64,000 nucleotides of DNA, taken from assembly GCA_038245905.1 (NCBI GenBank), contig JBBRRY010000019.1:9072-73071 (forward strand), written 5' to 3'. Position 1 is the first letter of the stretch. Every line of letters starts with the position of its first letter. Below, piece by piece: positions 12,202 through 64,000 of the stretch. The position numbers and the translations under genes were made by a program. Below the pieces are notes generated by a model. That model did not search any database, was not told where the DNA came from, and saw only the letters and a program-made list of their open reading frames with translations. Source of the stretch: Thermoanaerobaculia bacterium (GTDB lineage: Bacteria > Acidobacteriota > Thermoanaerobaculia > UBA5066).

Positions 12202-12214
12202 GGGGATTTCCTCC

Positions 12215-14179
12215 TTACTGTTTGAGAGCCGTTGACGTTTCGTGCCACGCGAGCGCGCGGGTCGCCACCGCGCTCTTCATCATTCGAAGCAAGTCTTCGA
12301 TCTTCTGGTCCTTGAACTCGCCGCCGTGCCGGACGCGAAGCGAGACCGTGCCTGCCGCCAGCTCCTTCTCGCCGACGATGAGAAGCGCCGGGATCTTGTC
12401 CAGCTCGCCGTTACGGATCTTCGCGCCCAGCTTCTCGTTTCTGTGGTCCGAAGCCGCCCGGATCCCCTCTTCTCTCAACCGTCTCAGAATCTCTTCTCCG
12501 TATTCGTTGAATTTCTCCGAGACCGGAACGACACGCACCTGCTGAGGCGCGAGCCAGAACGGGAAGTCGCCGCCCGTGTGCTCGATCAGGATGCCGAGGA
12601 AGCGCTCGAGCGACCCAAGGATCGCGCGGTGGAGAATGACCGGCCGCTGCTTGCTTCCGTCCTCGGCCGTGTAGTGCAGGTCGAACAGCTCGGGGAGGTT
12701 GAAGTCGCACTGAATCGTCCCGAGCTGCCAAGGCCGGCCGATCGCGTCGTTGACGCGGAAGTCGATCTTCGGCCCGTAGAACGCGCCGTCACCCGGCGAA
12801 ACGACGTAGGGGCGTCCCGTCGCCTTCAGCGCCGCCTCGAGCACCTTCTCGGCGCGATCCCAGACTTCGTCGGGCCCGACGCGCTTCTCGGGCCTGAGGC
12901 CGATCGAGATCGCGACGTCCTTGAAGTCGAACGCGCCGTAGACCTCGTCCAGGAACTCGAGAAACGACGCCACCTCGCGGTCGATCGCCTCGGGCGTCGA
13001 GAAGATGTGCGCGTCGTCCTGCGAGAACGAGCGGACACGCGTGAGGCCTTGCGTCACCCCGGACTTCTCGTAGCGGTGGAGCCGCGCGAAGTCGGCATAG
13101 CGCACGGGCAGGTCGCGGTAACTCCAGGCCTGGGACTTGAAGAGGAGGCAATGACCCGGACAGTTCATCGGCTTGACGCCGAATTCCCGCTCGTCGACCT
13201 CGACGAAGAACATGTTCTCGCGGTAGTTACCCGAATGCCCTGAGGTCGTGAAGAGCTCCTCGTCGAAGATCTGGGGCGTCAAGACCTCGTCGTAGCCGTA
13301 CTTGAGGTACAGCTCGCGGATCCAGGAGATCAGGAGGTTGTAGACCGCCGCGCCCTTCGGGAGGAAGAACGGCGACGCGGGCGCCCACGGGTGGAACACG
13401 AAGAGCCCAAGCTCCTTGCCGAGCTTGCGGTGATCGCGGGCCCGCGCGGCCTCGAGGCGGGCAAGGTGCTCGTCGAGATCCTTCTGCGTGAGGAAGACCG
13501 CCCCGTAGATGCGCTGGAGCATCGGGTTCCGTTCGTCGCCCTTCCAGTAGGCGCCGGCCGAGTGCGTGAGCTTGAAGACGCCGAGCTTCCCCGTGGACGG
13601 GACGTGCGGGCCGCGGCAAAGGTCGATGAAGTCCTTCTGCTCGTAACACGAGAGGCTTCCCTCGGGAATGCCCGCGACGATCTCGACCTTGAGCGGGTCG
13701 TTCTGCGCCGAGAAGATCGCGACGGCCTCGGCCTTCGACATCTCCCTGCGGACGATGACGTTGTCCTCGGCGACGATCTTCTTCATCTCGGCCTCGATCT
13801 TTTCGAGGTCTTCGGGCGTGAAGGGCCGGCCCGGGTCGAAATCGTAGTAGAAGCCGTGCTCGATCGCGGGGCCGATTCCGATCTTGACGCCCGGGTAGAG
13901 ACGCTTGACCGCGTTCGCGCAGAGGTGAGCCGTCGAGTGCCGATAGAGCTCCAGCGCGTCCGCGTGCTTCGGCGTCACGACCTCGAACTTCCCCGAAGCC
14001 ATGAGCGGGCGCGAGAGGTCGAGTACGGCGCCGTCCAGCTTCACGCCGAGGGCGTCCTTTGCGAGCCGGGGGCCGATCGACTCGGCTACGGCACGGCCCG
14101 TGGTGCCCTCAGGAACCTCCCGAACCGAACCATCCGGCAGCGTCAACCTGATGACGCTCGAACTCACCGCCGCAGACAT
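12215..14179 (-). CDS. thrS: Threonine-tRNA ligase
   Basis: TGS domain, RHSTAH, DLCRGPHV, KPMNCPGH, FYGPKID and HRAILGSLERF motifs. Confidence 0.98.
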   Translation of the reverse strand: MSAAVSSSVIRLTLPDGSVREVPEGTTGRAVAESIGPRLAKDALGVKLDGAVLDLSRPLMASGKFEVVTPKHADALELYRHSTAHLCANAVKRLYPGVKIGIGPAIEHGFYYDFDPGRPFTPEDLEKIEAEMKKIVAEDNVIVRREMSKAEAVAIFSAQNDPLKVEIVAGIPEGSLSCYEQKDFIDLCRGPHVPSTGKLGVFKLTHSAGAYWKGDERNPMLQRIYGAVFLTQKDLDEHLARLEAARARDHRKLGKELGLFVFHPWAPASPFFLPKGAAVYNLLISWIRELYLKYGYDEVLTPQIFDEELFTTSGHSGNYRENMFFVEVDEREFGVKPMNCPGHCLLFKSQAWSYRDLPVRYADFARLHRYEKSGVTQGLTRVRSFSQDDAHIFSTPEAIDREVASFLEFLDEVYGAFDFKDVAISIGLRPEKRVGPDEVWDRAEKVLEAALKATGRPYVVSPGDGAFYGPKIDFRVNDAIGRPWQLGTIQCDFNLPELFDLHYTAEDGSKQRPVILHRAILGSLERFLGILIEHTGGDFPFWLAPQQVRVVPVSEKFNEYGEEILRRLREEGIRAASDHRNEKLGAKIRNGELDKIPALLIVGEKELAAGTVSLRVRHGGEFKDQKIEDLLRMMKSAVATRALAWHETSTALKQ

Positions 14180-14250
14180 GCCTTACCCTCTTCCCTTCTC
14201 AGAAATCTTCCTCTCTCCCGCGAGAAGAACAACGACGTCAGGTCGAGGGA

Positions 14251-14326
14251 TGGTAGGCGCTAGCGGACTCGAACCGCTGACCCCTTCCGTGTGAAGGAAG
14301 TGCTCTACCGACTGAGCTAAGCGCCT
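14251..14326 (-). tRNA. tRNA-Val(CAC)
   Basis: AGGCGCTTAGCTCAGTCGGTAGAGCACTTCCTT-CAC-ACGGAAGGGGTCAGCGGTTCGAGTCCGCTAGCGCCTACCA; cloverleaf with encoded CCA. Confidence 0.97.
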
Positions 14327-14366
14327 TCGAGTAGCCGTACGGCGGCGGCACGGGAGAGACCGCGGA

Positions 14367-14441
<75 letters not shown>

Positions 14442-15071
14442 TTACTTGCCGCGTTTGTCTCTCCGAGGGCTGTCGCCGGGGGCCGTTCGCTTTGGAACGT
14501 CTTGTGAGCCCCGACCTCGACCCGGATCGTCTTCTCCAAAGAGCATTTCCGGCGTTTCGGCCGGAGCCGCGGAGGATAACACAGCCCCCGGCGGGATCGG
14601 CCCTCCGGACTCCCGGATCGCCGCCTTCTTCCTCACCCAGAGCGTCTCCGTCACGCGTGCGACGAGAGCGCCGTCGTCCGCGACGATCTCGACGACGAGG
14701 ACGGGCTCGACTCTCTCCCCGCGGTCGGCCGCCGCGCGGATCTCGTCGATCCTCTCCGGCGGAACGACGAACGTCGCCGTCACGCGCCCGCGGCCGGGCC
14801 TCAGGAACTCGATCTGGGCCGCCTTGTTCCACACGATGTAGCCCTGGCCGAGGTTCTTCATCAGGATGAAGACGAAGTGCGGATCGCACATCGAGTAGAG
14901 CGACCCGCCGAACTGCGTCCCGAAGAGGTTCCTGTTCCACCAGTAGAGCCCCATGCGGACGACGATCGTGTGCGGGTCGTCCTTCGGATACCGGACCTTC
15001 ACACCCGCCCCGAGGTACGGCGGGTAGAGGCTTACGAGCCTCATGAGGAGGCGGTGGCGGAGCGAAGCCAT
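14442..15071 (-). CDS. DUF4442/YiiD-C hotdog-fold thioesterase-like protein
   Basis: YPPYLGAGV, NRNLFGTQFGGSLYSMCDP and VWNKAAQIEFLRPG motifs. Confidence 0.85.
   Translation of the reverse strand: MASLRHRLLMRLVSLYPPYLGAGVKVRYPKDDPHTIVVRMGLYWWNRNLFGTQFGGSLYSMCDPHFVFILMKNLGQGYIVWNKAAQIEFLRPGRGRVTATFVVPPERIDEIRAAADRGERVEPVLVVEIVADDGALVARVTETLWVRKKAAIRESGGPIPPGAVLSSAAPAETPEMLFGEDDPGRGRGSQDVPKRTAPGDSPRRDKRGK
14573..14581 (-). promoter_or_regulatory. Putative extended -10 element (TGnTATCCT) for the tRNA-Val/thrS transcript
   Basis: TGTTATCCT followed by a GC-rich discriminator-like stretch ~130 nt upstream of tRNA-Val(GAC). Confidence 0.4.
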
Positions 15072-15074
15072 CGC

Positions 15075-15764
15075 CTAGCGCGAGACGCCCGCGGGTGCCG
15101 GCGTACCGATCGCGGCGAATGGGATGTCGAGGACGGCGTACTCGCGCCAGTCCTTCCAGTCGAAGTGCCACCACTCCCACGGGTAGACGAAGAACCCCTC
15201 TTTCTCCATCGCGCCCCGAAGGAGGTCGCGGCGCTCCAGCGCGTCCTTCGGCCCGCCCTCGTATGTCACATAGGAGCGCTTGGACATCTCGTCGTATGCG
15301 CCCCCCATGTCCGCTTCCTTCCCCGTTTCGAGGCGATAGAGTGTCAGGTCGACGGCCCCGCCCCGGTTGTGTCGCGAGCCGTTCTTCGGGTTCGCGACGA
15401 AGACCTTCTTGTCGGCCGGCGTCAGGTCCCAGAACTGCTTCGTGACGGCCCACGGGCGATAGCCGTCGAAGACCAGGAGGCCGTAGCCCTGCGCCTTCAG
15501 CGAGGTGTTCACGCGCGCGAGCGCCTCGGCGGCCGGGCGCTGTAGAAAGGCGCGCGCCTCGGAATAGAAGGGCCGGCCGAACTCGTTGTTCTTCGTCGCG
15601 TACCGCACCTCGAGCCGAATCGTCGGGTCGAAGCGGACGAGCTCGGCGAGGTCGGGCGCGCGGAAAGCGCGGTCCTCCTTCGGGGGGCCGTCCTGTGCGT
15701 AGAGCGGTGCGGCGGGGAAAGGAACGAGCAACAGGACCGCGAGAAACCTGAATGGAACTTTCAT
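15075..15764 (-). CDS. ddpX: D-alanyl-D-alanine dipeptidase (M15D, VanX/DdpX family), with signal peptide
   Basis: ATG at 15764 (MKVPFRFLAVLL); FDGYRP, SRHNRGGAVDLT and EWWHF zinc motifs. Confidence 0.9.
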   Translation of the reverse strand: MKVPFRFLAVLLLVPFPAAPLYAQDGPPKEDRAFRAPDLAELVRFDPTIRLEVRYATKNNEFGRPFYSEARAFLQRPAAEALARVNTSLKAQGYGLLVFDGYRPWAVTKQFWDLTPADKKVFVANPKNGSRHNRGGAVDLTLYRLETGKEADMGGAYDEMSKRSYVTYEGGPKDALERRDLLRGAMEKEGFFVYPWEWWHFDWKDWREYAVLDIPFAAIGTPAPAGVSR

Positions 15765-15826
15765 CGCACTCGGCCTCCCCATCCGCGCCACCGCGCGAAT
15801 CGCGAACGCAGATTCCTTCCGTTGAA

Positions 15827-16291
15827 CTACTTCTTGACGTCGAACTCCTTGGTCGCGGCGACGGCGCCGTCGGCCGAGACCTCGAGCTTGTACTTCCCCA
15901 CGGGCCAGCCCGAGGGCTTCGCGATGTGGAATTCGGTGACGGCGGGGCCGGTCGGTGCGATGTCCCGGCTCTCCTCGTTCACGAGCTGATTCTTCGCGCC
16001 GAAGGTCCAGCGCGCCTTGAGCGTGGCCTTGGCCGATGCGCCCTCGGAGGAGACCCCCGCGTAGATCGTGTCCTTCGGGCCGAACAGCGCGGCAGCGTCC
16101 TTGATTTTCTTGTCCTCGCCGATGGACTTGCCGAGATCGACGGACGTGACCTTGAACGGCACGGGCGTCGGCACGGCGGTGGGCGCCGGGATCGGCGTCG
16201 GAGGCGGCGGGGGCGGCTCTTTCTTCGCGCAAGCGCCAAGCGAGACCGCGGCGATGAGGACGAGTGCGGGCAGGACGAAACGGTTCTTCAT
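15827..16291 (-). CDS. Lipoprotein with Pro-rich linker and Ig-like domain
   Basis: Lipobox LGAC, PPPPPPTP linker, beta-rich domain ending GWPVGKYKLEV. Confidence 0.75.
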   Translation of the reverse strand: MKNRFVLPALVLIAAVSLGACAKKEPPPPPPTPIPAPTAVPTPVPFKVTSVDLGKSIGEDKKIKDAAALFGPKDTIYAGVSSEGASAKATLKARWTFGAKNQLVNEESRDIAPTGPAVTEFHIAKPSGWPVGKYKLEVSADGAVAATKEFDVKK

Positions 16292-16306
16292 CGTTCTCTC
16301 CTTCTG

Positions 16307-16561
16307 TCAGGCGCCCGGGATCTTCAGGACCTGGCCCGGGTGAATCATGTCGGGGTTCTTGATCGTATCCTTGTTCGCCTCGAAGATTTCCTTCCAGCGC
16401 GAGGCGTCACCGAAGATCTTCTTGGCAATCTTGGAGAGGCTGTCACCGCCCACGACCGTGTACGCGCGCGTGATGACCTCGCCTGTCGGCGCCTCGGCCG
16501 AGCTGGAGCTGCCGCTCTTCACATCCGAGAAATCGGGCTCTGGTTCGTCGGGAAATGGCAT
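16307..16561 (-). CDS. Small LysM-domain protein
   Basis: YTVVGGDSLSKIAKKIFGDASRWKEIFEANKDTIKNPDMIHPGQVLKIP; SD AAGGAG before ATG 16561. Confidence 0.9.
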   Translation of the reverse strand: MPFPDEPEPDFSDVKSGSSSSAEAPTGEVITRAYTVVGGDSLSKIAKKIFGDASRWKEIFEANKDTIKNPDMIHPGQVLKIPGA

Positions 16562-16597
16562 GGGACTACTCCTTTCGTAGGGGGCAAGCATATCGAA

Positions 16598-18307
16598 TCA
16601 TTCCGCCATGCACAGCCCGACGCGGTGGCCCGCGCCGCGTCCGCTGACGCGCCAGCCGCCCTCGACGCGCTCGAAGGCGTCGGGGGGCGACGGCAAGCCG
16701 TCCCAGCCAAGCGTCGCCGCGATCCGGCGGTGGAGATCGTCGTAGAGAAAAGACTTCTTCTTCGACGAGGGGGAGAAGAAGGTCGCAACCGTTAACCTCA
16801 CGCCGCCCTTCTCGGTGGCTTCGAGGCCGACGACTCTTTCGCCGAACGCGGCGTCGATCGAGCTCGAGGGCCAACGCCGCGTCCAGCGGAACGAGGCGTC
16901 TTCTCCCGAGTGACGCGGGCAGACGTCCGGCGTTTCGCTGCCGCTTCCCCAGACGGCCTTCTCGGAGAGCGGCGCACCGCCGCAATGTCCCGTGAAGTGG
17001 GACGGTCCGGACAGCGTCGCCGCATCCGTCGCGCGCCGCCATCCGGCGTCGTCGAGGAACGCGGGCGGCGCGGCGATCGCGTTGCGCTTGTCCACCAGCG
17101 CGGTCCAGCGAGACGTCCACGTCACGTCCGGCCCCAGGCCCGCGAACCGCGCACAGTGCGTCAGGTCGCAGACGTCCTCGGCGCCGTGCCGCGCGCCGCG
17201 CGCGAGAAAGCGCAGGATGGCGGCGCCAAGCTCCTCCTTCCGGGCGCGCGGCGCGCTCGGCATCTCGCCGCGGATCACACCCTCTACGTAGTCGCGCCGC
17301 GTCGTCGTGAGGACGAGGGACACGCCGGGCGCTTCCGGATTCCCCCGCGCCCTCAGGCTTCCGCAGACGATGCGGACGAGGCCGAAGCGCGGGAGTCCGA
17401 GGAGCCATGTTCCGGATTGGAGGTGCTCTCCCGGTCCCAGGGCGACCTCGGAGCCCGGACCGATCCACGCGGCCCCGCCCGGCCCGTCGACGCGCACGGG
17501 CGCGCTCCCGATGTTATTCGCGGAGATCTCCGTCGCCCGGAGCGCGACGAAGAGGCGCACGGAAACGGGTCGTTCGGTGAGCTTCGGCTCTTTGGCCGAT
17601 CGTCCCCCGGCGTTCTCTTTCTGAAGCAGGGCGCCGAGCGCGGCCGCGGCCCGGGAACCCGTGCCGCGCGGGAGGAGGGCGAGGTGACCCGAGCGGCCCG
17701 CCGGATCGAAGAGCACGGCCCAGCCCGATGTGCCGAGCGGCGCGCCGTCGAGTGCGTGAACCGTTCCCGTTTTCGCGAAAAGGCCGCGCAGCGGCACACC
17801 GGCCGCCGTGCCGCCTTCCCCGGCGTCGCGCATCCCGTCCAGCCATTCGCGCCGGACGTCGTCGCGCACGGCCCACGCCGTCGTGAGGAGCTCGGCGTAG
17901 GCCTGGAGGAGGCGACGCGGCGCGATGACGATGTTCGGCCCGAGGCCGATCGCGGCATCCGGCGTGACGGGTCCTGAAACGTCGTAGCCGGCGGCGGTCA
18001 GCGTCTCGCGCAGCAGGGCTTCGGGCGTTTCCGCTGCGAGCCGCCGGAAATAAGCGTTGCACGACCGCGCCGTGGCGCCCCGGAGGTCCATGGCGCCGTG
18101 CCCCCCATCGAGCCAGCATCGCGAAGATCGGTCGCACGTCGAGCGCGGCGTCGGCGTGGCCGGGTCGGAATGCGCGAGCGCCCAGGCCTTCGTCACCCAC
18201 GCTTTCTGGAGCGAGCCGACGCTGTGGGGGGTGTCCGCGCCTTCCTCCGGCGAGACCTGCCCGTCGGCAAGGCGCCAGACGAGGAGTCCGGCCGCGAGGA
18301 GCTTCAT
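16598..18307 (-). CDS. PBP/beta-lactamase-like domain fused to a SpoIID/LytB domain (YfaQ-like)
   Basis: ATG 18307; SxxK (SLQK), SxN (SCN) and KTG motifs, then YVEGVIRGEM, CDLTHC, HCGG and GRGAGHRVGLC. Confidence 0.8.
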   Translation of the reverse strand: MKLLAAGLLVWRLADGQVSPEEGADTPHSVGSLQKAWVTKAWALAHSDPATPTPRSTCDRSSRCWLDGGHGAMDLRGATARSCNAYFRRLAAETPEALLRETLTAAGYDVSGPVTPDAAIGLGPNIVIAPRRLLQAYAELLTTAWAVRDDVRREWLDGMRDAGEGGTAAGVPLRGLFAKTGTVHALDGAPLGTSGWAVLFDPAGRSGHLALLPRGTGSRAAAALGALLQKENAGGRSAKEPKLTERPVSVRLFVALRATEISANNIGSAPVRVDGPGGAAWIGPGSEVALGPGEHLQSGTWLLGLPRFGLVRIVCGSLRARGNPEAPGVSLVLTTTRRDYVEGVIRGEMPSAPRARKEELGAAILRFLARGARHGAEDVCDLTHCARFAGLGPDVTWTSRWTALVDKRNAIAAPPAFLDDAGWRRATDAATLSGPSHFTGHCGGAPLSEKAVWGSGSETPDVCPRHSGEDASFRWTRRWPSSSIDAAFGERVVGLEATEKGGVRLTVATFFSPSSKKKSFLYDDLHRRIAATLGWDGLPSPPDAFERVEGGWRVSGRGAGHRVGLCMAE

Positions 18308-19833
18308 CGTGCCGGGGAAAGGACGACGCGTTCCGTCCAGCCGGCAGGCGAGGCGCAGCGCTCGACCGAAATCGTCGCGATTCCCGGAGCCCAGCCCAAG
18401 AGCCCGAGGACGCGGTCCGAGAACGGCCGCGCTCGCTCGGGCGAGAAGACGCCCTCGGCGCGCGCCCAGTCCTTGCCTTCGCGCGCCACGGCGGACAGAT
18501 CCAGCCAGCTCCACCTCACGAGCGAGCCATCGGCCGAAGGTTCCACGATTCCGGCAAGGTCCTCGCGCGAGGCCGCGATCCACAGCCAGGCACCGCGCCG
18601 CTCCCATGCGAACGCGGGCAGGTCCGGCCCCACGCGGAGCTCGCTCCGTTCCCTCCGGGCGACGCCTGCGCGGCGCGCGGCCATGGCGAGCGCGAGAGCC
18701 ACGAGACGCGCGTCCCCCTCGACTGGCCGCTTCACAACGAGGCGCCGCGCTCCGCTCTTCCCGATCTCCCATCCCCACCCGTCGACAGGACTTTCCTTCA
18801 GGTGGGCGGCCCACTCCGGCAGCTCGCCCGGCTCGCCCCCGGCCTTCTCGTCCGGCGCGGCGCGCGTCAGATCCACGAGGTAGGGATCGGCCGCCGTGGA
18901 ATTCGCGTCGGGCAGCGGCTTGAGAGACGCCACGGGCAGCGCCTTCGGCTCGGGCACGCTTTCGAGGAGGCCCCGGCGAAGAGCCCCGAAGAGGCGGGAG
19001 CCGTCCGTCTCCCAGCCCGCGGCGGCGAGGTCACGGCCGTCGATTTTCCAGGCCGGGGCGGCGGCGCGCGAGGCGTCGGTTCCCTCGCGCACCTCGACGA
19101 GGGCCTCTCCTTCGGCGCGTAGCGCCGCGAGAATCGTGCCGGTTTCGGATCCGGAGACCCCTTCCGCAAACAGAAACTCGCGGCGGAAGTAGAGGTCTTT
19201 TCGAAGCGCCGCGACGTCGAGCTTCAGGGAAACGAGCCCGGGCAGGAATCCCCTCACGCCCTCGCCCGCGAGCGAGCAATCGAGGGCGAGCTGAAGAGCC
19301 TTCTCGCTCGTCGCAATCAGAAGGACTCCGTTCGACTCCGCCCACGCGAGACCCATCCGCCGCGACGCGGCCCTGAGGTCTCCCGCGCCGCGGGCCACGA
19401 CGCGGTACGCCATGCCCCGGCGGTCTTTCGCCGTCCCGCCCGGCAGCTTCAGAACCGCGGCGGCCGACGCCGTCCGAACCGCCAGGACCGTCTCGAGATC
19501 GCCGACCGAGAGGAGCGTGACGCCAATCTCCGATGGCTGCAGCTTCATGAGCGAGCCCCAGTCGAGAGGGAGATCCTTCGTGAAGAGCGCCCATTGCGAT
19601 TCCAGCTTCCCGCCCACGCGGGTCTGCCGCCAGCCCGCCGCGACCGGATCGGACGCCGGGAGAGCGCCGGACAGCCCCTTGCGGAAGCCACCCGAAAGCG
19701 CATGGTCGAAGGCCGGGACGTCGGAGATCAGAAGGACGACCGGACCCTCCGGAAGCGGGAGCGCTGCCTTCGCCTGTCCTGCGGCCGGGCTCGCCGCGAG
19801 CAGCAGCGCGAAGAGAGCAAGGGCTTTTTTCAT
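18304..19833 (-). CDS. Exported hypothetical protein (509 aa)
   Basis: ATG 19833 (MKKALALFALLLAASPAAG, signal peptide); ATGA overlaps with both neighbours. Confidence 0.8.
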   Translation of the reverse strand: MKKALALFALLLAASPAAGQAKAALPLPEGPVVLLISDVPAFDHALSGGFRKGLSGALPASDPVAAGWRQTRVGGKLESQWALFTKDLPLDWGSLMKLQPSEIGVTLLSVGDLETVLAVRTASAAAVLKLPGGTAKDRRGMAYRVVARGAGDLRAASRRMGLAWAESNGVLLIATSEKALQLALDCSLAGEGVRGFLPGLVSLKLDVAALRKDLYFRREFLFAEGVSGSETGTILAALRAEGEALVEVREGTDASRAAAPAWKIDGRDLAAAGWETDGSRLFGALRRGLLESVPEPKALPVASLKPLPDANSTAADPYLVDLTRAAPDEKAGGEPGELPEWAAHLKESPVDGWGWEIGKSGARRLVVKRPVEGDARLVALALAMAARRAGVARRERSELRVGPDLPAFAWERRGAWLWIAASREDLAGIVEPSADGSLVRWSWLDLSAVAREGKDWARAEGVFSPERARPFSDRVLGLLGWAPGIATISVERCASPAGWTERVVLSPAR

Positions 19834-22800
19834 GGCACGTTCTCCGCGTTGAGCACGCGCGCATAGAGATCCCACGTCAGATCGCGCGGGCGAAGCTCGG
19901 CGAAGCGCCCCGCCGTCGTCCGGGTCACGTCCGGCCGCGGCAGATTCCGTCGCGAAAGGCTTTCGACTTCGCCTTTCAGGGCCGCGAGCGCGGGAGCTTT
20001 CCTCTCCGCGAGAGCGGCGAGGGCCTGAGCGGCGGCCGCCTTGTCGCCGGATTCCGCGGCCACGCGCGCGACGTCGGCGAGGAGGCCGTCGACCTCGGCC
20101 TTCGGGAAGCGGCGGCGCGCGAGCTCATTGGCGTCCACGAAGAGCGACGGGACGGCCGCCCGTGCCGACCGGAAGGAGCGGGTCCGCTCGAACCGGAGCA
20201 CGCGCCAGCCGGGGACGTCTTCACGGCCTCCGAGAGCGGCCCAGGCCGGAGCCGCGACGGCTTCACGCGCAGGCGCGAGGCTCCGAAGGACGACGCGCGC
20301 CGAGAGAAAGTCGTACGGGTGCCGCGCGAGATGCGTGGCGAGTGTGTCGCCCCAGAAGTCGATGTCCGGCCCCTTCTTTGTCCAGAACGCGGCGGCGATC
20401 TCCCACGCGGCGGGAGCGCCGCTCGCCCGGCCTGCCGGGACGCCGGGGATCCGCCGCCACGCGTCGAATGCGTCTCGCTCTTCGGTGCGCGTTAGGGAGA
20501 GCCGCGCACGCACATGAACCCATTCGGTCCGCGCCTCGTCGGGAAGCTTGCGCAGGAGGAGGATGTCCGCGCGGACTCTCGCCTCCGCGAACGATCGGGG
20601 CTCCTCGATGCGTTGGAACCAGCGCCCCGCGGCGGCCGGATCCCGCGCGACGAGAGCCTTGGCAATCGCCGCGCGGTCGCCCGAAGGAGCGGGCCATTCT
20701 CCGCGTGCCCAGCTCTTCTCGAGATCCGCGATCGTCGCGTTCTGCGCTTCGGGGGTTGTCGCGAGCTCGAGCGAGAGCAGCCACGCCGCGAGTGGAGCGG
20801 GTCCGGCTTCGAGCTCCTTCTTCACGCGCGCGCGGAGCTTCTCTTCCGCCAGAGTGAGGGCGGCCCCGCGCGTCGAGTCGCGGAAGACCTTCAGCCACGT
20901 CACCAGGCTCGGAGCGCCCGAGGCCGTCGGTGCCGGCAGAGCATGTGCGTCCGGCACACCGGCTCCTTCTTCGCCCTCCTCGGCGGCCGGGGGCGGCGCG
21001 GCGGGAACGGCGGCGGCCGACCAGAAAAGCGGTGAAGCCCCCGGCGCCGTCGAGGTCAGCCTGTGGTCGAGGCGATTGAGCGCAGCCGCTTCGTCGCCCG
21101 AGGCGAGCTCGGCCTTGAGGAGAAGGAGCTCCATCGGCTCGCGCCGATCGAGCGTCTTCGCAGCGAAGTTGCGGAGCGGGTTCGGATCGGGCAGGGCGCG
21201 CACCGAGGCGAGAGCGTCGGCGCGGAGGCGCACGTCGACCGGCGCGAGAACGTCGCCCGCCGCCGCCCAGAAGGGCCCGAGCTTCCGCGCGGCGCGGTCG
21301 GGATAGCGAGCTGACCCCACGGACCAGAGGTCGTCGAGGTACCGGATCGTCCTGTCTCGAGAGAGGGTCTCGCCTTCCTTCTCCCAGCGAGCGGCGAGCG
21401 CGACGCGAAACGCGGCGGAGTCGGCCGGCGTGAAGCGCGCGGCGGCTTTGGGGCCCTCGACGTCCCAGAGCCACGCGAGGAGCCCCGGAGAGACCGACTT
21501 TTTCGCATCGAGCTGCTCGAGAGGCGCCGTCAGCCCGAAGTGCTTCGCCACGCTCTGCCAGGCCGTCCAGGTCTCCGGGTCGGCGCGATTCTGGCGCGAG
21601 CGGATCTCCGTGCCGAGAAGGTCGTCGGCCGCGCGGCGACCCGCCGCCGGATCATCTTTCACGAGAAGGCGCAGCCGCCTTAGCAGTCGGTCCCGCTTGC
21701 CGAGATCGGCGAAATACGTCTCGTCGAGCCGAAGCGCGAGCGGCACGTCACCGAGCCCTTCGGCGGTCCTCACGGCAAGCAGGGTCTTGTCCGTCTCGCC
21801 GCCGCGAGACGGCGACTCCAGCGGCACCCACGGCGCATCGACCGCGCGCTCCCGCCAGCGCGAAAGGGCCTCCAGGACGTACCACGCGTCGCCGGGACGC
21901 GCGCCCCAGAGTCGGCCCGGCAGGCGCATCGCATCGGCGCCGCCGCCCGTGAACGAGTCTTCGCCGGTCTCTCCCGAGGGACGCGGAGAAAACTCGGGCC
22001 ACGTCCACTTCGGGTCGGGAGTCAGGACGTCCCCGAGGCTTCTCGGCCCCCGCAGCCGCACGATGTCCGCCGAGGACGCGGCGTCCTTCTTCCCTTCGAC
22101 GAGGGCCGCGAGAGACGACGAGGCACGGGACACCGCCGTGCGCCTCTGAGCTTCCAGCGGGTTCAGGCGGGCGGCCGCCGCCGTCCCGCGCGCGGAAAGG
22201 AGAGCCAGCCATGCCCCCCTCGTGTCGTCGTCGAGGATGTTCACGAGCGGGCGGAGGTCCCAGGCGCCGCCGGTCGCCGCCTCGAAGCGCGCGTAGGCTT
22301 CTTCCGTCCGGAACCAAGAGGCGGCGTGCGCCTTCCAGCCCGCGTGTTCGGGCGTCTCGGCGAGGCGTGCGAAGGCTTCCACCGGGAACCAGCGCGCGAA
22401 CGGGAGAGGCAGCGCGTGGAGCGGTCCTGTCGAAACACGCGCTTGAAGCTCCGCAACCCGAGCCTCGAGGATCGGCACGAGAAGAGCGAGGCGATCGCGC
22501 GAGACGAGATAGGACGTCCACTCGGGGAGGAAGTCCGAGTTCGAGAAGGCAATCGTGTGGCCTTTGCTGGCCCCGGAGGCCGGTGGAACATCCTTGATGG
22601 GGCGAATACTCCGTAAGAAGGCAACAGGGGGATTGGCGCTCCAGGGGGCGCCCGCGTCGTGCCGGGATGCCAGCAGCCGTCGAGCGACTTCCTCAGAGAA
22701 TCTGTGGAGCCCGGCGCGGCCGGCGAAGTCCCACCAGCGGTTGAGGGCGGCAACGTTCATGACTGGTTCGCTTCGCCCATCCGGCTTGCCGCCGCCTTCT

Positions 22801-57241: not shown

Positions 57242-58330
57242 ATGGCTCCGGGGAACAGGACTCTCCGCGTCGCGATCTCGCTCGGGCTCGCCGCGCTTCT
57301 CCTCGTCCTCTTCCTCAGGACCCTCGATTTTGCCGCCGTGGGCCGGGCCATCGCCGCCGCCCACGTTCCGTGGCTCGTCGTCGCCACGCTCGCCGGCCTC
57401 CTCGGCACGCCGCTCCTCAGGTCGTGGCGGTGGGGTCTGCTCCTGAAGAAGGCCGGGAGCCCCACTCCCCTGCAGCTCAACTCGGCCACGGCCATCGGCT
57501 TCGCGGCCTCGACGCTGCTTCCCGCGCGCGCCGGCGAGATCGTGCGCCCGGTCGCCCTCGCGAAGAACGCCGGGCTTCCCGTGGCTCCGTGCCTCGCCTC
57601 CATCGCCCTCGAGCGCCTCATCGACCTCGTGACGGTCATCGCACTTTTCGTCGCGTACGCGATCGGCTGGGCGCCGGTGGGGATGGGCGGCGAGGAGGCG
57701 GGGCGATTCGAGCTCCTGCGCCGCTCGGCGTTCCTCCTGGGACTCGGCACGCTCGTCGGCCTCGCCTTCCTCGGCTTCCTGGCGGCGAAGCCAGCGCGCG
57801 TCGACCGCCTCGTGAGGCCGTTCCTCCGGCCCCTGCCCGGCCGGATCGGCGCGAAGATCGAGTCGATCCTCCATTCGTTCCTCGACGGCCTCGGCGCGCT
57901 GGGCACCCTGCGCGACCTCCTCGTGGTGGCAGCGGCGTCCTTTCTCCTCTGGATGCTCATCTCCTTCCAGATCTGGTCCACGCTGCGCGCGTTCGACCTC
58001 GTCTTTCCGTTTCCCGTCACGTTCTTCGTGCTCACGTGGGCCGTCCTCGGCCTCGCCATCCCGACACCGGGCGGCGTGGGCGGCTATCACGCGGCGGTCG
58101 CGTATTCCCTGACCGGGTTCTACGGCGTCTCGAAGAACACGGCGGCGGCGTTCGCGCTCGTCTCGCACGCGCTCTCGTTCGTGCCGATCACGCTCGTCGG
58201 CCTCGCGTTCCTCGTGGCCGGCGGACTCAGCTTGAAGAGCCTGGCGAACGCGCCGTCGACGCCAGAGCCATCGAGTAGTCCGAGCCCCACACCCCCGGAT
58301 TCGACTCCAGCATCTCGACCCCGAGCTTGA
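57242..58330 (+). CDS. Lysylphosphatidylglycerol synthase TM/UPF0104 family protein
   Basis: RSWRWGLLL, LPARAGEIVR, LERLID and PTPGGVGGYH motifs. Confidence 0.88.
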   Translation: MAPGNRTLRVAISLGLAALLLVLFLRTLDFAAVGRAIAAAHVPWLVVATLAGLLGTPLLRSWRWGLLLKKAGSPTPLQLNSATAIGFAASTLLPARAGEIVRPVALAKNAGLPVAPCLASIALERLIDLVTVIALFVAYAIGWAPVGMGGEEAGRFELLRRSAFLLGLGTLVGLAFLGFLAAKPARVDRLVRPFLRPLPGRIGAKIESILHSFLDGLGALGTLRDLLVVAAASFLLWMLISFQIWSTLRAFDLVFPFPVTFFVLTWAVLGLAIPTPGGVGGYHAAVAYSLTGFYGVSKNTAAAFALVSHALSFVPITLVGLAFLVAGGLSLKSLANAPSTPEPSSSPSPTPPDSTPASRPRA

Positions 58331-58580
58331 AGAAGCCTGTCTGGTCGAGCCCCGCCTGCCAGACGACCCGGCAGTGGCACAGAACGCGCGTGCGCACGTT
58401 CTCGAGCTCGAAGATGTCTCCCACCGTCACGTTCCGTTGCGCGTAAAGAAGCGCTCCATGACTGTTCACGATCAGTGTCGATCCGCTGAACCTCTGGCCT
58501 TCCCAGCGCAGTCCGATCGGAATCCGCACCTCAACGCGCGGACTCCGACGCAGCTCATGGTACGCAGCCGGATCGAGCAC
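58227..58580 (-). CDS. Stand-alone PilZ domain protein
   Basis: RRSPR (RxxxR), VNSHG (variant of DxSxxG), CRVVW and LGVEM motifs. Confidence 0.75.
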   Translation of the reverse strand: MLDPAAYHELRRSPRVEVRIPIGLRWEGQRFSGSTLIVNSHGALLYAQRNVTVGDIFELENVRTRVLCHCRVVWQAGLDQTGFFKLGVEMLESNPGVWGSDYSMALASTARSPGSSS

Positions 58581-58626: not shown

Positions 58627-58818
58627 CTAGGAGCCGCCCTCGGCCTCCGACTTCGGCGGAGCCTTTTCGTTGATCCGCTCGTGGCATTTCTTGCAGACGA
58701 ACGTGTTCAGCGAGGCAACGAAAGTCCACTCGTCGGACTTGTCCACGTCGCAGAAGAAGCACCGTCGCCGCCGCCGCGGCGCGACCGTCTCGTCGAACGG
58801 TTCAGCCTTATCGGTCAC
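58627..58818 (-). CDS. Small ClpX-type C4 zinc-finger protein (63 aa)
   Basis: CFFC...VCKKC; GTG start at 58818. Confidence 0.55.
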   Translation of the reverse strand: MTDKAEPFDETVAPRRRRRCFFCDVDKSDEWTFVASLNTFVCKKCHERINEKAPPKSEAEGGS

Positions 58819-58857
58819 CCTGGGGCAAGTCTGGGCGAAGAAAGTGCGGGAATCAAG

Positions 58858-59049
58858 GGAGAGAAGCCCACGTGCCGGAATTGCCCGACCCACTGCTACA
58901 CGCGGGACAAGCGCGCGCAGATGCACGAGGTCATGCGCTTCGCAGGTCCCCGCATGTTCCTCCGCCACCCCGTCCTCGCGTACGGGCACCTTCGTGACGA
59001 GAAGAAGAGTCGGCGCCCCGGACGCGCCGGACTGCGAGCGTCGGCGTAA
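58858..59049 (+). pseudogene. ygbA: 3' remnant of a YgbA (nitrous oxide-stimulated promoter) family gene
   Basis: EKPTCRNCPTHCY...MHEVMRFAGPRMFLRHP matches the YgbA C-terminal half; the N-terminal Cys/His half is absent. Confidence 0.7.
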
Positions 59050-59154
59050 GGGATCCGTTCCTCCCCGTTGGCGAGGCCCAGCGTCAAGTCGGCCGACGAG
59101 CGTTGGAAGCTCCGCCCGTCTCGCACTCCCTGAAGAGATCCTGGACCTCCGCCG

Positions 59155-59322
59155 ATGAGAAAGAACCTGAAGCGAAAGCGTCGCTCGTGCGGCCTCTGCA
59201 AGCCGCACAAGACCGGGATTCAGCGGCGCTGGACGCCGAAGGAGTTTGACGCCCGAACTCGCGCTGAGCGGGAGATCCGCTCAGGTTACGCCGCGCCCTT
59301 GGCCGATCAGAGCCCGCGATAG
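59155..59322 (+). CDS. Small basic protein with a CxxCKPHK motif (55 aa)
   Basis: MRKNLKRKRRSCGLCKPHKTGIQRRWTPKE...; below the ORF-track cutoff, translated by hand. Confidence 0.55.
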   Translation: MRKNLKRKRRSCGLCKPHKTGIQRRWTPKEFDARTRAEREIRSGYAAPLADQSPR

Positions 59323-59570
59323 GCCGTCGGCCGCGGCCTGACGCGCGTCACCGTCACCACTCGCGCCGCGTCATCGATCTCGAAAAGAATCCGGTAGTCG
59401 CCCACGCGGACCCGGTAGAGCCCCGGATGACCGCGCATGGCCTTGACTCCATGCGGCCGTGGGTCTTCCTGGAGCGTGAGGAAATAGGGGTCGAGACGCC
59501 TTCGGACGATGAGAGGGAGCCGAAGGAATTCACGCTGCGCCGAGGAAACGAAGTCGAGACTGTAGGACAA
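59307..59570 (-). CDS. relE: RelE/ParE family toxin
   Basis: DPRPHGVKAMRG..GLYRVRVGDYRILFEID. Confidence 0.9.
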   Translation of the reverse strand: MSYSLDFVSSAQREFLRLPLIVRRRLDPYFLTLQEDPRPHGVKAMRGHPGLYRVRVGDYRILFEIDDAARVVTVTRVRPRPTAYRGL

Positions 59571-59573
59571 GCC

Positions 59574-59825
59574 TTACAGCCCGGCGCGCTTGCGGACCTC
59601 GGCGTAGGGGATCCTCTTCTCCTTGGGGTTGGCGAGGCGGGAGGCCGAGACGCCCACGTCAAAGCGGTCCTCCAGCTCCTCGAGGAGCTTGAGATCCGCG
59701 ATCGAGACGACCGCAGCAACAGGCCTCTTCCCACGGCGGACGATCACCCGCTCGCCATGGAGGGCGCGGTCGAGGGCGGATTCGCTCACGGGGGCAGACG
59801 GCTTCCTGACAGCAACTCGGCTCAT
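59574..59825 (-). CDS. Phd/YefM-like antitoxin
   Basis: GERVIVRRGKRPVAAVVSIADLKLLEELED; directly upstream of the toxin. Confidence 0.85.
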   Translation of the reverse strand: MSRVAVRKPSAPVSESALDRALHGERVIVRRGKRPVAAVVSIADLKLLEELEDRFDVGVSASRLANPKEKRIPYAEVRKRAGL

Positions 59826-59930
59826 ACGCTAGCTATTCTACGGCCCCTTGAGCTTCCCGTCTTCTCCCTTGCCAGGGCTACCCTCAGCTCCCGTCATAGA
59901 GTTGCGCAGCGCCCCTCAAAGGAGCCACCC

Positions 59931-61169
59931 ATGCGCACTTCTTGCCCGCCGCGAGGCGGCGGTTCTGGCCTTGCCGCCCTTCTCCGAGCCACCCACCTTC
60001 TCGGCCTCGCCTTCGGTTCGGCCCTCGGGAAACTGCGCGAGTCGGGTCTGACCGCACAGGCAATGTTCGCGAAGGCCGAGGAGCAGGCGATGCTCGTGCG
60101 GATGCTCCGCGAGGCGGCAGAGATCCTCGGCGAGCGCTGGGACAGGGTGCCCGACCGGGCCCGCCTGCACTACACGCCGGAGCAGAGGTTTCGGATCCTG
60201 CAGATCAAGACGTTCCTCGGTCTCTCGCAGCGTGAGGCGGCCAGGTTTTTCCGGGTGTCGATCGAGACGATCGGACGCTGGGACGAGGAGGCGCTGAGCG
60301 GGCGCGAGGAGGAAGACGTGCCCGCGCTGGTCCGCCCGTCGCCACCCGTCCGCCGGTTCTCTGACGTCGTGAGAGCGGTCGCGAAGACCCTCGTGACGGC
60401 TGGCGTCGGAGGCAACGACCTGATCGCCCGGACGCTGGCGCGAGCCGGATGGAAGCTTTCGGCGCGGACAGTCGCGAGGATCCGCCGAGAGCGCTGGCCG
60501 CCTCCTCGGGCGCCAGCGGCGGCCTCGAAGGCCCCACGCGCGGTGAGGGCGCGGCGCCCGAATCACGTCTGGATGGCGGACCTGACCGACGTGCGAGGGC
60601 TGTTCGGGCTCGTGACGTTCAAGATCGCGGTCGTGTTTGATGTGTTTTCGAGGATGCCGCTCTCGATGCGGGTTTTCGCCAAGGAGCCGTCGGCTCGCGA
60701 GATGGCGCGGCTCGTCTCGAGGACAGCGAGGCGATTCGGGAAGCCGGCGCACTTCGTCTCGGACAAAGGGAACTGCTTCAGAGGCGGCGCGTTTCGTCGT
60801 GTGCTCAGACACCTCGGGGCGAGGCCGAGATTCGGTGCGATCGGAAAGAAGGGTTCCATCGCACTGATTGAAAGGCTCTGGCGGACGTTGAAGGATTCGC
60901 TCGGCCTGCGACTACTACGGCCTCTTGTCGCCGAGGATCTTCGGCAAAAGGTCGAGCTCGGCCTCATCCACTACGCGCACTTTCGACCGCACGAGGCTCT
61001 CGCCGGAGCGACGCCGGCGGAAATTTACTTCGCACGGACGCCAGCACATCTCGACGCGATCCCGCCGCCGCGTGGAAGGCCCGGCGAAGGGTCCATGGAT
61101 TCGCCGTTTCGGATCGAGTATCTCGACGCCGAGCGGCGGCTGCCCGTTCTCGTTCGAGAAGCTGCGTAG
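59931..61169 (+). mobile_element. DDE transposase/integrase (HTH + rve core), 412 aa
   Basis: SD AAGGAG before ATG 59931; HTH (LSQREAARFFRVSIETIGRW); PNHVWMAD, VSDKG, IERLWRTLK and RPHEAL motifs; element ends not identified. Confidence 0.85.
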
Positions 61170-61301
61170 AGCCAGGACTCCTTGAGTCGATGAAGTGCGT
61201 CGGAGTCGGTCGAACTGCGCGCGAGGGCGGGGGCGGCCAAGGCTCCGATCCTGGTCTGTACGCGCCACAACTCCCATTGCCTGCCTACAGAGTAGCAGAG
61301 A

Positions 61302-62405
61302 GGCGTGTCCGACACGCCCGCCCGTCTCCTGATGCCACGCTCGCCCTGACCCGCACGCCGCAGGCGGCTCCGCAGAAGGGCCGGTTCGACCCGTCGCTCT
61401 TCAAGGCGCGCGCCAGCGGGCCCCTCCTCGGACCTCCCTCCTGGCGCGCGCCTCGAATCCGCCGTGCTAAGCACGGCGGCCGCTGCCGCCTAAACGCTTT
61501 TTAGGCGGCCCGGGTCCTTCTCTTCCCGCTCCGCTCCGTTTCACTCCGCTCCGCGGGGGCCGGCCCTTCTGCTCCGGGGCGCGGCCAGGCCGCGCCCTGC
61601 CGCTGAGCTAAAGCTGCAGCGGACACCGCCCGCCTCTCTCGAGCGCGCTTCGCGCGGGCTTCTAAAGGCGTGGCACTGCGCGTGCCTCGGCGAGCGCGAG
61701 CGCTTGCGGGCCTCATGCTCTCGTGTCCTCAGCCCTCGCGCTCGCGCACGCTCGCGCCACGCCCGTGGATTCTTCCCTTAGCCGCGTCCGCCTCCGGCGG
61801 CGCGGCCGCGCGCAGCGCGGCGGCGCGCTCTCGTGCCCTCGTCGCTCTCCGCGCTGGCGGGAGCGTGCCCGCGAAGGTGGCCGAGCACACGCGAGGCGCG
61901 CAGGCGACCGGAGCGGAAGCCACGCACGCGCACTGCCAGCGCTTTACCGCCCGAGCAAAGCGAGCACCGCCAGCCGCGTGGCCTTGCGCGGCCCGCAGGT
62001 TCGTGGCGCGTGGACCGAGCACGCGACCCGTGCAGCGAAGCGAAGCGGCACATGGGAGCCCGCGCAGGCGCGCGCGCCCTTCAGAGGCGCGCCGCGCAAG
62101 GCCCTTAGCCGCTCGCGCCCGCGCCGGGCGCGCACCTTACGGCCCGCGGCGTTTAACAGAGCCTTCGGTTGCTGTTAAAGGTCGCGGCGCAGCGCAGCGA
62201 GCACGCGACCCGGAGGCGGAAGGGGTGCCACCGCGGAGCGAAGCGCAGCGGGAAATGAAAAGCCCCGGGTACGGTAATGGACCATTACCGGACAGCGACC
62301 ACGCGCGCCAGCGCGTGGATGCGGCGCGCGTGACCGGGATGGGGAAATTGGGGCCACGCCCGGCACGCGCGCCGCAGAGCGCCCGGCTCCCTCACCCCTT
62401 CCGCC
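61302..62405 (+). other. Large hairpin-dense non-coding element
   Basis: More than 10 inverted repeats of about 6-13 bp plus long-range complementarity; no credible CDS. Confidence 0.6.
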
Positions 62406-62445
62406 GGAGCGCCGCGGGGCGCCGGTAGAGCCCACACAACGCACC

Positions 62446-63021
62446 TCACACCTTGCTTGCGGCCCCACGGTTTCTCGTTTCCTGCGGCAGAAAAACGACT
62501 CGATCATTCGGAAACTGCTGCCAAGTCGCGCCCAGGGTGAAGAGTCGCTTCGCTCCTGCCGTGTAGCCGATGTCACGATAAAAGGACTGACCACCTGTCA
62601 CGAGATTCTTCCCAAGGACTCCAAAGCTCAACTGTTTCGACTGTCGAAGCTCTCGTTTAAGCCAACGTAAGTACCTTTCCGGGTGGACTTGCTCTACGTC
62701 GAAATCTTCAGCATGAATTTCCGAGAGCAGCAGGCTCGCCTTCCCAGAGGCTTCTGAAAACTGCCCGGGCCTCACGTCTATCCAGCCTAGGTCGCGTGGC
62801 CTCGCTTCATTCATGCTGATCTGGCGCCTAAAGTCTGTCTTTGGCCCCAAGAACACTCTAAGGGTGTCCGGATCAAGCACGCATTTAGATCCATCCGCCT
62901 CGGACAACCCCCTCGTGGATCCACTAGTGAAGCTAAGACACGCCAGCTCCCACCTGTCGCACACCGTTCTTATCCATGCTTGAAGCTCTCCGGGGACGCA
63001 AAAAACCGTAAGGGAAGCCAC
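62446..63021 (-). CDS. Putative immunity protein for the upstream Rhs toxin
   Basis: Starts 3 nt after the toxin stop; visibly lower GC than core genes; no recognisable family. Confidence 0.65.
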   Translation of the reverse strand: MASLTVFCVPGELQAWIRTVCDRWELACLSFTSGSTRGLSEADGSKCVLDPDTLRVFLGPKTDFRRQISMNEARPRDLGWIDVRPGQFSEASGKASLLLSEIHAEDFDVEQVHPERYLRWLKRELRQSKQLSFGVLGKNLVTGGQSFYRDIGYTAGAKRLFTLGATWQQFPNDRVVFLPQETRNRGAASKV

Positions 63022-63024
63022 GAT

Positions 63025-63927
63025 TCAACGATCGTAGGGCGTGTATCCGGGACGTTGTCCCGTGCGTGTTTCAAGGTCGTCCATTGCGCCGACTTCCCTC
63101 GGGAGTGGCGTGCCATCCGCGGCCGTCTTGCCGACATTCTCACGGTAGTACTCACCTGTTCTCCGGTTTCGGAAAGTGATATCCGGCCTGCGCGCGCTCC
63201 TCAAGCCTCCAGGCGTGCGAATGAATTCTTCTTTCTTGGAACCGCCCGCGATGTGTTCCCAGTCCGGCCCAAGTTCACGCCCCAGCTCTTCAATGCGCCG
63301 CTCGATCGTGAGGTTATGCGGACCAGTGCCCTTCGGCTTCGGGCCGCGCCGCGCGCCGGCGCTCGCGGCCTCCCCCATCTCCGTCTTACTGACGATCTTC
63401 CCGAACTTGTCGCGTCCAACCCTGTAGAGCTTTCCTCCGATTTCCAGTTCCGCCCACTCGAGTGCGACGCCGGCACCGACAACCGAAATGTCACCCATGG
63501 TCTCGTAGCCGCGTTTGACACCTTCGTCGTAGCGAGCCGCGCCGTATTCGATCTCATCCGGCGTTCGCGGCGGCCGCTCGGGCTGTTTCCATAGGTCCCG
63601 CGCAGCCTGCTTCACGCTGGAATTGAACTTCTCCACCACTTCGTAGGGATGCAGGATCGAGTCGAGCATCCCGCTACCCCAGTTACGCAAGAAGCCAGGT
63701 TCCTTTTGAGCCTCCTCCTTCTCCTTCTGAATCCTGTCCTGGCGCTCCATCGCCTCGAGCCAGAGCGGGCCACCTTGCAGCCCCAACGGGTCCGTCCTCT
63801 CGTGCGGCCGTGCTCCGACGAATCCGTACAGGTTCGGGGAGTCGACGTCTCCCATGGGATCTTGGGAGAGCCATCCCACGGTCCCAGATGCAAGTCCGCA
63901 GCTAAAGTCCGCGCATCCCCAATGCAC
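63025..63927 (-). CDS. Orphan Rhs core tip plus C-terminal PD-(D/E)xK-like nuclease toxin
   Basis: WLSQDPMG...NLYGFV...P...TDPLG Rhs cleavage motif, then RRPDIT...ENVGK; the frame is open to the window edge but not Rhs-like upstream of ~63880. Confidence 0.75.
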   Translation of the reverse strand: MHWGCADFSCGLASGTVGWLSQDPMGDVDSPNLYGFVGARPHERTDPLGLQGGPLWLEAMERQDRIQKEKEEAQKEPGFLRNWGSGMLDSILHPYEVVEKFNSSVKQAARDLWKQPERPPRTPDEIEYGAARYDEGVKRGYETMGDISVVGAGVALEWAELEIGGKLYRVGRDKFGKIVSKTEMGEAASAGARRGPKPKGTGPHNLTIERRIEELGRELGPDWEHIAGGSKKEEFIRTPGGLRSARRPDITFRNRRTGEYYRENVGKTAADGTPLPREVGAMDDLETRTGQRPGYTPYDR

Positions 63928-63996
63928 GTCGAGACTTAGCTCGCGCTCGACCAGGTAAACCTTCTGAGAAAAAAGTCTCAGACCCCAGACGCGAGT
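63883..63996 (-). repeat. Imperfect 13-nt direct repeats with ~34-nt phasing
   Basis: ACTCGCGTCTGGG (63984-63996), ACGTGCATTGGGG (63917-63929), ACTTGCATCTGGG (63883-63895). Confidence 0.55.
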
Positions 63997-64000
63997 TTTC

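Follow-up and report, generated by a model that had tools for sequence, protein, structure and literature searches.

The window analysed here is a stretch of 64,000 nucleotides from a Thermoanaerobaculia bacterium (contig JBBRRY010000019.1, hereafter C19), and the contig ends at window position 64000. At this end, on the minus strand, a non-Rhs stretch with phased repeats, which we call the repeat arm, runs into the tail of an Rhs core followed by a variable tip and a small ORF (Table 1). A DPxG-ending tail, a variable tip and a small downstream ORF, all located off the main gene, correspond to an orphan tip module. The frame that the initial annotation had described as stop-free is open from 63999 to 63025 and, as it had also stated, the Rhs similarity starts only at WLSQDP, with the TIGR03696 match limited to profile positions 44-76. 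The window tail is 88% identical over 34 aa, and 84% over 102 nt, to that of the one other Rhs core in the genome, a 6,269-codon open frame on contig C45 (L002 / G000, 1934-20740). This giant Rhs carries many Ig-like repeats ahead of its YD core, and the open frames of its relatives span 6,300-7,100 codons; its tip, designated X, matches a tip in genome G004 that has HNH-like motifs.

Table 1. Features identified in the distal part of the window (positions are those of the window).
Feature	Position	Strand	Remarks
End of the element ("leader", the repeat arm), a non-Rhs stretch with phased repeats	63880..64000	-	Cut by the contig end; single genome match of the motif model
Repeat A, best conserved copy	63984..63996	-	Its GC lies 119 nt ahead of the spacer
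Degenerate +33/34 slot	63951..63963	-	Weak in the window; support at family level only
Repeat B (63929-63917) and TAA-containing box upstream (63939-63935)	63917..63939	-	
Repeat C (63895-63883) and TTAG-containing box upstream (63906-63901)	63883..63906	-	
Predicted recombination core: left arm 63885-63874, 6-bp spacer 63873-63868, right arm 63867-63856	63856..63885	-	10/12 complementary
Rhs core tail WLSQDP...DPLGL	63778..63873	-	TIGR03696 positions 44-76, E 4e-5, below cut-off
Displaced toxin tip Y	63025..63777	-	No Pfam match
Probable immunity gene for tip Y, by position only	62446..63021	-	ORF directly behind the tip, 55% GC
Palindromic non-coding region, GC-rich (74%)	61395..62430		Follows tip-immunity pairs in relatives
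IS transposase (rve domain)	59931..61169	+	Sits where the repressor-primase-integrase block of an older element would be
Phd/YefM-like antitoxin and ParE-like toxin pair	59307..59825	-	81% and 72% identical to the L055 pair

The displaced tip Y was closest in the Atlas to unnamed clusters (0.93-0.94) and then to Tox-REase clusters (0.87-0.88), so that a restriction-endonuclease-like fold is a lead only. No homologue of this tip was detected at E<=1e-15 in any of the 62 other genomes of the family (62/62 searched), and family searches with the product of the ORF behind it gave no match.

The three 13-mers reported by the initial annotation lie on the minus strand at offsets of 67 and 34 nt (repeats A, B and C). 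Their combined score within the last 121 nt was matched by 1 of 300 dinucleotide shuffles, and that of the best single pair (11/13) by 11 of 300. On the family profile the three copies score 24.4, 0.7 and 16.9. The additional degenerate copy proposed near 63951 is weak in the window (-9.1 on the same profile), but the phasing of about 34 nt deduced from it is real for the homologue family, because +67 (z 3.4) and +33 (z 2.7) were the best unforced interior positions in 43 non-redundant homologues. The repeat family was not among the 20 largest families returned by a generic repeat finder for 61150-64000. Repeat C, which had been placed at the junction with the Rhs sequence, overlaps the left arm of a 12-6-12 dyad, but the junction itself corresponds to the spacer of this dyad.

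We propose that this dyad is the recombination core. Two arms around a 6-8-bp spacer are a feature of Xer/dif and IMEX sites, and here the arms are complementary at 10 of 12 positions, a level reached at 783 of the 3,793,875 positions of the genome. The window spacer is identical to that of the main Rhs on C45. The centre of the dyad was chosen from the window and genome G320, and then tested at this fixed place on 45 non-redundant metagenome loci; we observed 103 complementary pairs versus 81.6 +/- 7.1, a value reached by 16 of 10,000 permutations in which kinship was ignored. On the repeat-arm side, the scores (of 12) were 10 in the window, 11 and 8 in G320, 8 in G020, 8-10 at cdiA in Enterobacter, and 6-7 in E. 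coli; weaker dyads were present in G011 (5), G039 (4), L055 (5), L065 (5), G255 (2) and Paraburkholderia (3-4). The corresponding host-core sites usually scored lower, at 2-5 (G320 and E. coli 2, Enterobacter 3, G020 5), with the exception of the main Rhs of the source genome, which scores 8. The repeat arm is conserved, and its left core half seems to adapt to mirror the target of each lineage. The bases GTGGGA of the main Rhs had been considered as a transferred coupling sequence of the Tn916 type; this idea was dropped, given that the dyad analysis places them in the left arm.

The geometry of the site is constant, the distance from repeat A to the spacer being 117-119 nt across Acidobacteriota-type genomes, E. 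coli, Lonsdalea, Enterobacter and Paraburkholderia. The repeat-arm and host sides have identical spacers in G320, Enterobacter, E. coli and G020; in G011, the spacer of the repeat arm is unlike that of the main gene. A short core is common to both junctions, with G011 as the exception. The exact sequence common to different tips amounts to 11-19 nt in G320, 12-13 nt in Enterobacter, 14 nt between the main gene and the repeat arm of G020, and 20 nt between C19 and C45, and only 1 nt in G011. Identities of 11-19 nt are too short for efficient RecA recombination, and the finding that different tips have as little as 11 nt in common therefore argues against the action of RecA alone. In G320, the identity between the main gene and the first unit begins exactly at the spacer, and the site sits inside the tip, without an Rhs tail.

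Nearly the same junction between the repeat arm and WLSQDP was found in G020 (twice), G011 and G014, and a diverged one in G039, in a survey of 41 close-relative genomes in which several Rhs matches began at the same model position; none of the conclusions depends on the unpublished genome G025. The initial annotation had suggested looking for a tyrosine or serine recombinase, and in these relatives a tyrosine integrase is tightly linked to the stretch: the integrase is located upstream of the repeat arm in G020, G011 and G039, and a primase is also present in G020 and G011. In the latter two genomes, the repeat arm is preceded by a divergent repressor gene, by a primase-ATPase of 1,043 aa and by a tyrosine recombinase of 337 aa; the primase and repressor labels, taken from the G020 element, are based on NCBIfam matches below cut-off, motifs and record annotations. 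The two units of G020 are 96% identical and have different tips. The G020 integrase passes the NCBIfam model NF002331 (PRK01287; 406.5 bits, cut-off 371) and fails the XerC, XerD and integron cut-offs (TIGR02249, 114.5 versus 265; PRK15417, 77.3 versus 435), and its catalytic motifs TGIRRGE, GKGQK, HIFRH and TSIY are intact. By record title, the closest matches to the integrase belong to Acidobacteriota/Thermoanaerobaculia.

From these relatives, the order of a unit is toxin tail, tip and immunity gene, cargo or non-coding DNA, repressor, primase-helicase, integrase, in some cases a toxin-antitoxin (TA) pair, and the repeat arm. Tandem units often follow a full-length Rhs or CdiA gene and, in the arrays opened, the units measure 7-14 kb, each with its own primase and integrase and all in direct orientation; the exception is L127, with three leaders, several integrase fragments and no primase match. 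No packaging, transfer, relaxase, conjugation or capsid-hijacking genes are annotated in the units opened, where the gene tables of the plasmids are incomplete, and the two small circular records carrying the module are typed as non-mobilizable. In the relatives, the leader forms the 3' part of a short ORF behind the integrase that has a hydrophobic N-terminus, as judged by eye. Given this ORF start, it is possible that the cell still produces and exports the displaced tip. The last 145 bases of the window are likely the attR junction of an integrative element of this kind. Since the contig stops at the window end, the element itself is absent from the assembly, in which its genes gave only distant primase and Xer matches and no NF002331 match; we infer its presence beyond position 64000. 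The possibility raised earlier that the stretch is simply the end of an unrelated inserted element holds insofar as it is an element end, but the element is a dedicated one.

The genes and sequences that follow tip Y in the window indicate an older insertion. We interpret the GC-rich region at 61395..62430 as a relic of an older copy of the element, and the TA pair as a second one; in L055, the homologous pair is located between the integrase and the leader. Because this non-coding region and the L055-like TA pair follow Y, this tip was probably brought in by an earlier unit, now decayed, and the IS next to the TA pair suggests that the decay was linked to the IS. A homologue of this IS is also present near such loci in L056 and L020. 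Rfam searches of 59000-64000 found nothing real, the best E value for 61395-62430 being 0.95; one hairpin of this region is changed on both sides between relatives with its pairing kept, and the region is a candidate origin or structured DNA/RNA. A similar region lies behind tip-immunity pairs even where no integrase match is present (G022, G021, G001). Further on, a YgbA-like gene (58681-59049) and a PilZ gene (58227-58580) mark the return to the host chromosome; the same neighbours are found after the tip of G004, where a fragment of an integrase persists.

A search with a DNA-only pattern, made up of repeats A and C at their given spacing, gave at least 122 matching stretches in metagenomes, of which 79 loci were listed and 76 distinct ones analysed; every count given below uses only the rows with the stated flank. 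This search established that the K.RV.G...ASG insert, which the initial annotation had mentioned near toxin tips, is real and widespread. An Rhs tail follows the repeat arm in 43 of 66 loci, according to a small model built from eight cores. With a looser Rhs-tail pattern, 58 of 66 loci were positive versus 9 of 59 upstream controls. The Rhs tail is entered at about eight positions, 9 of the 43 model matches are out of frame, and a stop occurs within 20 codons upstream in 24 of 73 loci. These several entry positions, out-of-frame joins and upstream stops indicate that it is the DNA of the stretch, with a fixed spacing, that is conserved. As regards the proposed in-frame exchange, the frame matters for the main gene, but on the repeat side it is often broken, as these out-of-frame joins and the stops in the E. 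coli arms indicate. The KTRV frame contains a stop in 5 of 43 cases, compared with 20 and 22 for the other frames, a difference partly explained by the TAA box; a residual coding constraint may act on the repeat arm.

The integrase is upstream of the motif, on the same strand, in 32 of the 42 loci with at least 1.5 kb upstream, and a primase precedes it in 16 of the 20 loci with room for one. When the search started from the integrase, the repeat arm was found at class level in 13 of 22 loci with at least 1.2 kb of flank (11 strong, 2 weak), and in 12 of 64 loci of the broad set. The broad set also contains 21 aligned integrase-tail fusions (L075-L125, e.g. L075:5056-6406; mostly Verrucomicrobia by record title), in which an in-frame proline-rich linker leads to an Rhs tail and tip. 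These fusions have neither the repeats nor a primase match, and a conserved half-site precedes their junction. The DNA pattern gave 0 matches in viral contigs.

Among cultured bacteria, the integrase is present in 54 of 5,426 complete E. coli genomes, with a median of 4 matching places; the five loci opened contain 1-4 copies, and the mouse commensal strain MP1 carries two units. The module lies behind Rhs in these E. coli loci, behind cdiA in Enterobacter and behind an FHA gene in Paraburkholderia, and two small circular records also contain it. The enterobacterial and cdiA arms were missed by the motif model and were recognised through repeat A and the spacing. A small Leptospira plasmid had no match to the motif model, which also missed the enterobacterial arms. 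A Shigella "plasmid" circle matches a single unit of a tandem array on the chromosome (98%), and it may result from a collapse during assembly. The E. coli pair EC77 and E189 was discarded as a clean one-tip swap, given that another tail remnant lies between the repeat arm and the tip.

The assembly and its reads contain indications of a further joint. C45, in which the main Rhs continues into X, stops 141 nt past the junction, and the end of C19 lies 141 nt ahead of the point at which X and Y diverge; contigs of this assembly usually overlap by 141 nt (51/64). These breaks are what a third molecule, with the repeat arm joined to X, would cause. Run X1 is a possible source sample and so is not independent, it contains related organisms and other arm variants, and its unitig depths are not copy numbers. 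These depths were 110.7 for the repeat arm, which ends at the X/Y fork, 43.2 for tip Y, and 50 for the main Rhs, which runs into X; a 36-nt unitig beginning at the junction had a depth of 115.8. The surplus leaving the repeat arm (67.5) is similar to that entering X (65.8). From the matching depth surpluses and the contig breaks, we infer a reciprocal joint between the repeat arm and X in the likely source sample. None of the X1 unitigs listed bridges the two, and no empty joint between the core and Y was seen in this run. The joint could sit on a circle or on a tandem copy, which the depths do not separate. Over 63860-64000 and L002:1588-1728, run X1 contains two or more additional variants of the arm, together with additional tips, at depths of 75-121 versus 43-50 in the flanks, and several units may be amplified in this sample. 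Runs X2 and X3 contain next to none of the words searched and count neither way.

Taken from sequence alone, the arrangement is quite likely that of an integrative, probably self-replicating element whose tyrosine integrase recombines inside the 3' end of the toxin gene and swaps its tip; the unit structure, the integrase linkage, the fixed geometry and the short shared core are the observed part of this proposal. An integrase with intact catalytic motifs next to the att site is present in the relatives, its gene lying outside this assembly. According to this model, a circle would carry the repeat arm joined to tip X, and strand exchange in the 6-bp spacer with a host core joined to tip Y would yield core-X and arm-Y. 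Core-X would be a working toxin with a new tip and immunity gene, as on C45, and arm-Y would be the displaced tip, as in the window. Since the products, like the substrates, are a core joined to one tip and a repeat arm joined to the other, the reaction could also lead to the excision, duplication or reordering of units. Amplification of the circle, and its maintenance at several copies, would fall to the primase-helicase. In Xer recombination, the accessory DNA of cer and psi sets the synapse, and by analogy we are somewhat inclined to regard the repeats as accessory sites with this function.

A different role for the repeats would leave the swap as described: they could be iterons bound by the primase-helicase, or operators of the repressor. 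Repeats and primase co-occur, the primase preceding the integrase in 16 of 20 motif loci with room and both being absent from the integrase-tail fusions, which kept the conserved half-site adjacent to the junction; on this basis we retain the iteron reading as a minority possibility. The integrase (337 aa) also looks like a simple Xer-type enzyme that may be without an arm-binding domain. However, it is not obvious why an origin would require a constant distance of 117-119 nt from repeat A to the spacer, L127 has three repeat arms and no primase match, and repeat C overlaps the left arm of the core. The published model would explain the exchange itself by RecA-type recombination in the shared Rhs tail, with the boundary between repeat arm and tail being an old capture and the integrase only resolving multimers. 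A tail of about 100 nt is indeed common to the Rhs cases (84% over 102 nt in the source genome), orphans with long core remnants exist in the same loci, and the boundary of the Shigella circle is a duplicated segment rather than a new arm joint. We consider this explanation improbable, in view of the 11-20 nt of exact sharing between different tips, the G320 junction inside a tip without an Rhs tail, the joining of the same repeat arm to about eight Rhs positions and to VENN at a fixed distance, and the location of the dyad on the junction.

The toxin-swapping site proposed by the initial annotation stands as regards tip-immunity exchange with very little shared sequence, but not as an array of the integron or shufflon type, in which a single recombinase would rearrange or invert gene-only tip cassettes with the repeats at the head of each. 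Repeats and tandem tips do exist, L127 shows three repeat arms near integrase fragments, one E. coli tip, which follows an immunity gene directly, has a short arm-like remnant at its head, and the window arm folds modestly as single-stranded DNA (z -2.3). Such an array is nevertheless very unlikely: the units are 7-14 kb long, each encodes a primase and an integrase of its own, and all of them have the same orientation; with the model for integron integrases, the integrase reaches 114.5 against a cut-off of 265, and a conserved hairpin of the attC type is not evident in the family profile, which shows direct repeats. An attC-like reading of the repeat arm was accordingly rejected, its fold being modest and its pairing not evident in relatives. 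Finally, the feature is at a contig end of a metagenome-derived assembly, where a chimera might be suspected; the chance of this is minimal, as the independent X1 assembly contains exact unitigs across 62800-63889 and 63860-63978, and the same junction is found inside contigs of G020 and G011.

Xer systems acting on cer, psi and dif use a simple recombinase, a core with two arms of about 11-12 bp around a 6-bp spacer, and an accessory region of about 110 bp. The element resembles them in its simple Xer-like recombinase, its two-arm core around a 6-bp spacer and the adjoining accessory-like region of about 110 bp. In contrast to them, its enzyme is element-coded, and its site lies within a coding gene, has an arm that varies between lineages and is not dif (28 bp; PMC10210955). 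It also departs from IMEX, which target dif and have no integrase of their own, as its target is in Rhs or cdiA and its integrase is element-coded. P4-like elements and satellites carry an integrase, a primase-helicase and a repressor, and restore the 3' end of their target gene. The present element shares with them these three genes, insertion in a gene with a replacement 3' end, and tandem arrays; unlike theirs, its replacement end brings in another toxin domain and an immunity gene, so that the activity of the gene changes. Neither an IntI integrase with gene-only attC cassettes, as in integrons, nor segments inverted between opposite sites, as in shufflons, was found, tips and repeat arms being all direct in the arrays opened. 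As in integrons, shufflons and recombinase-associated immunity arrays (rAID), a tyrosine recombinase would build or reorder arrays used in bacterial conflict; in contrast to these, whole self-contained units in direct orientation are fused to the toxin gene, rather than stand-alone genes being added. XerC/D beside polyimmunity loci were reported by Zhang et al. (2012; PMC3482391).

Displacement of Rhs C-terminal regions via episomal circles was explained by homologous recombination (Jackson et al. 2009; PMC2935791), and homologous recombination is also part of the model for orphan CdiA-CT/Rhs-CT modules (Poole et al. 2011; PMC3150448). As far as the parts available of these papers go, our model coincides with theirs in that the old tip is shunted downstream, the main gene receives a new tip and immunity gene, the intermediate is circular, and the boundary is DPxG or VENN; it differs in the dedicated integrase, primase and dyad site, and the main text of Poole et al., to the same extent, does not mention an integrase, recombinase or primase. 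SymE, a Cro/cI repressor, a DnaG-type primase and an AAA+ helicase were noted beside RHS and haemagglutinin genes by Kawano et al. (2007; PMC1891008), and this SymE-cHTH-Prim-Hel neighbourhood is very likely the same module; in the available part of that paper it appears only as the context of SymE, with no mention of an integrase, an att site or tip exchange. Rhs and primase are not mentioned in Smyshlyaev (2021). The element is not described in the available parts of PMC13183296, PMC4428218, PMC10991766, PMC10210955, PMC6287321, PMC2864759 and PMC8138268, and no att site or tip exchange by a PRK01287 integrase is described in the full-text literature searched, a scope that leaves aside supplements and subscription papers. 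The family is apparently undescribed so far.

The way in which Rhs and CDI toxins gain new tips, and the place where the pool of tips is located, have been open since the 2009 displacement model, which found no linked integrase. With the enzyme family (annotated simply as "xerC", PRK01287), a predicted 6-bp crossover and culturable carriers named, this question is directly testable. On balance, we lean towards a pan-bacterial family of self-replicating elements, undescribed as such, that serves as a site-specific engine of polymorphic-toxin variation: a conserved arm with a re-tunable half-site would retarget the integrase to many Rhs positions and to the pre-toxin motifs of CdiA/FHA, insertions would rearm the toxin, and the circles would be the tip reservoir predicted in 2009. 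The mechanistic interest lies in how tyrosine recombinase lineages with one conserved arm reach many different coding sequences.

Some loci show variations of this arrangement. In three E. coli loci (L258:22725, L259:20293, L261:15122), the tip starts at the same 6-bp spacer directly behind the immunity gene and is headed only by a short arm-like remnant, possibly a minimal cassette. The enterobacterial units (L251:5350-5250 region; L252, in the non-coding DNA after xerC) contain an inverted sequence pair, which we take to resemble dif half-sites, and their arms have TGTTAAA boxes; a host XerD partner or an IMEX-like hairpin is possible in these units. Tandem primase-integrase units, some of them with a repeat arm, are also present in Phycisphaerales and others (L059-L064, L057, L058, L069, L070); no Rhs tail was detected in them by the pattern used, and these units may target other toxin classes.
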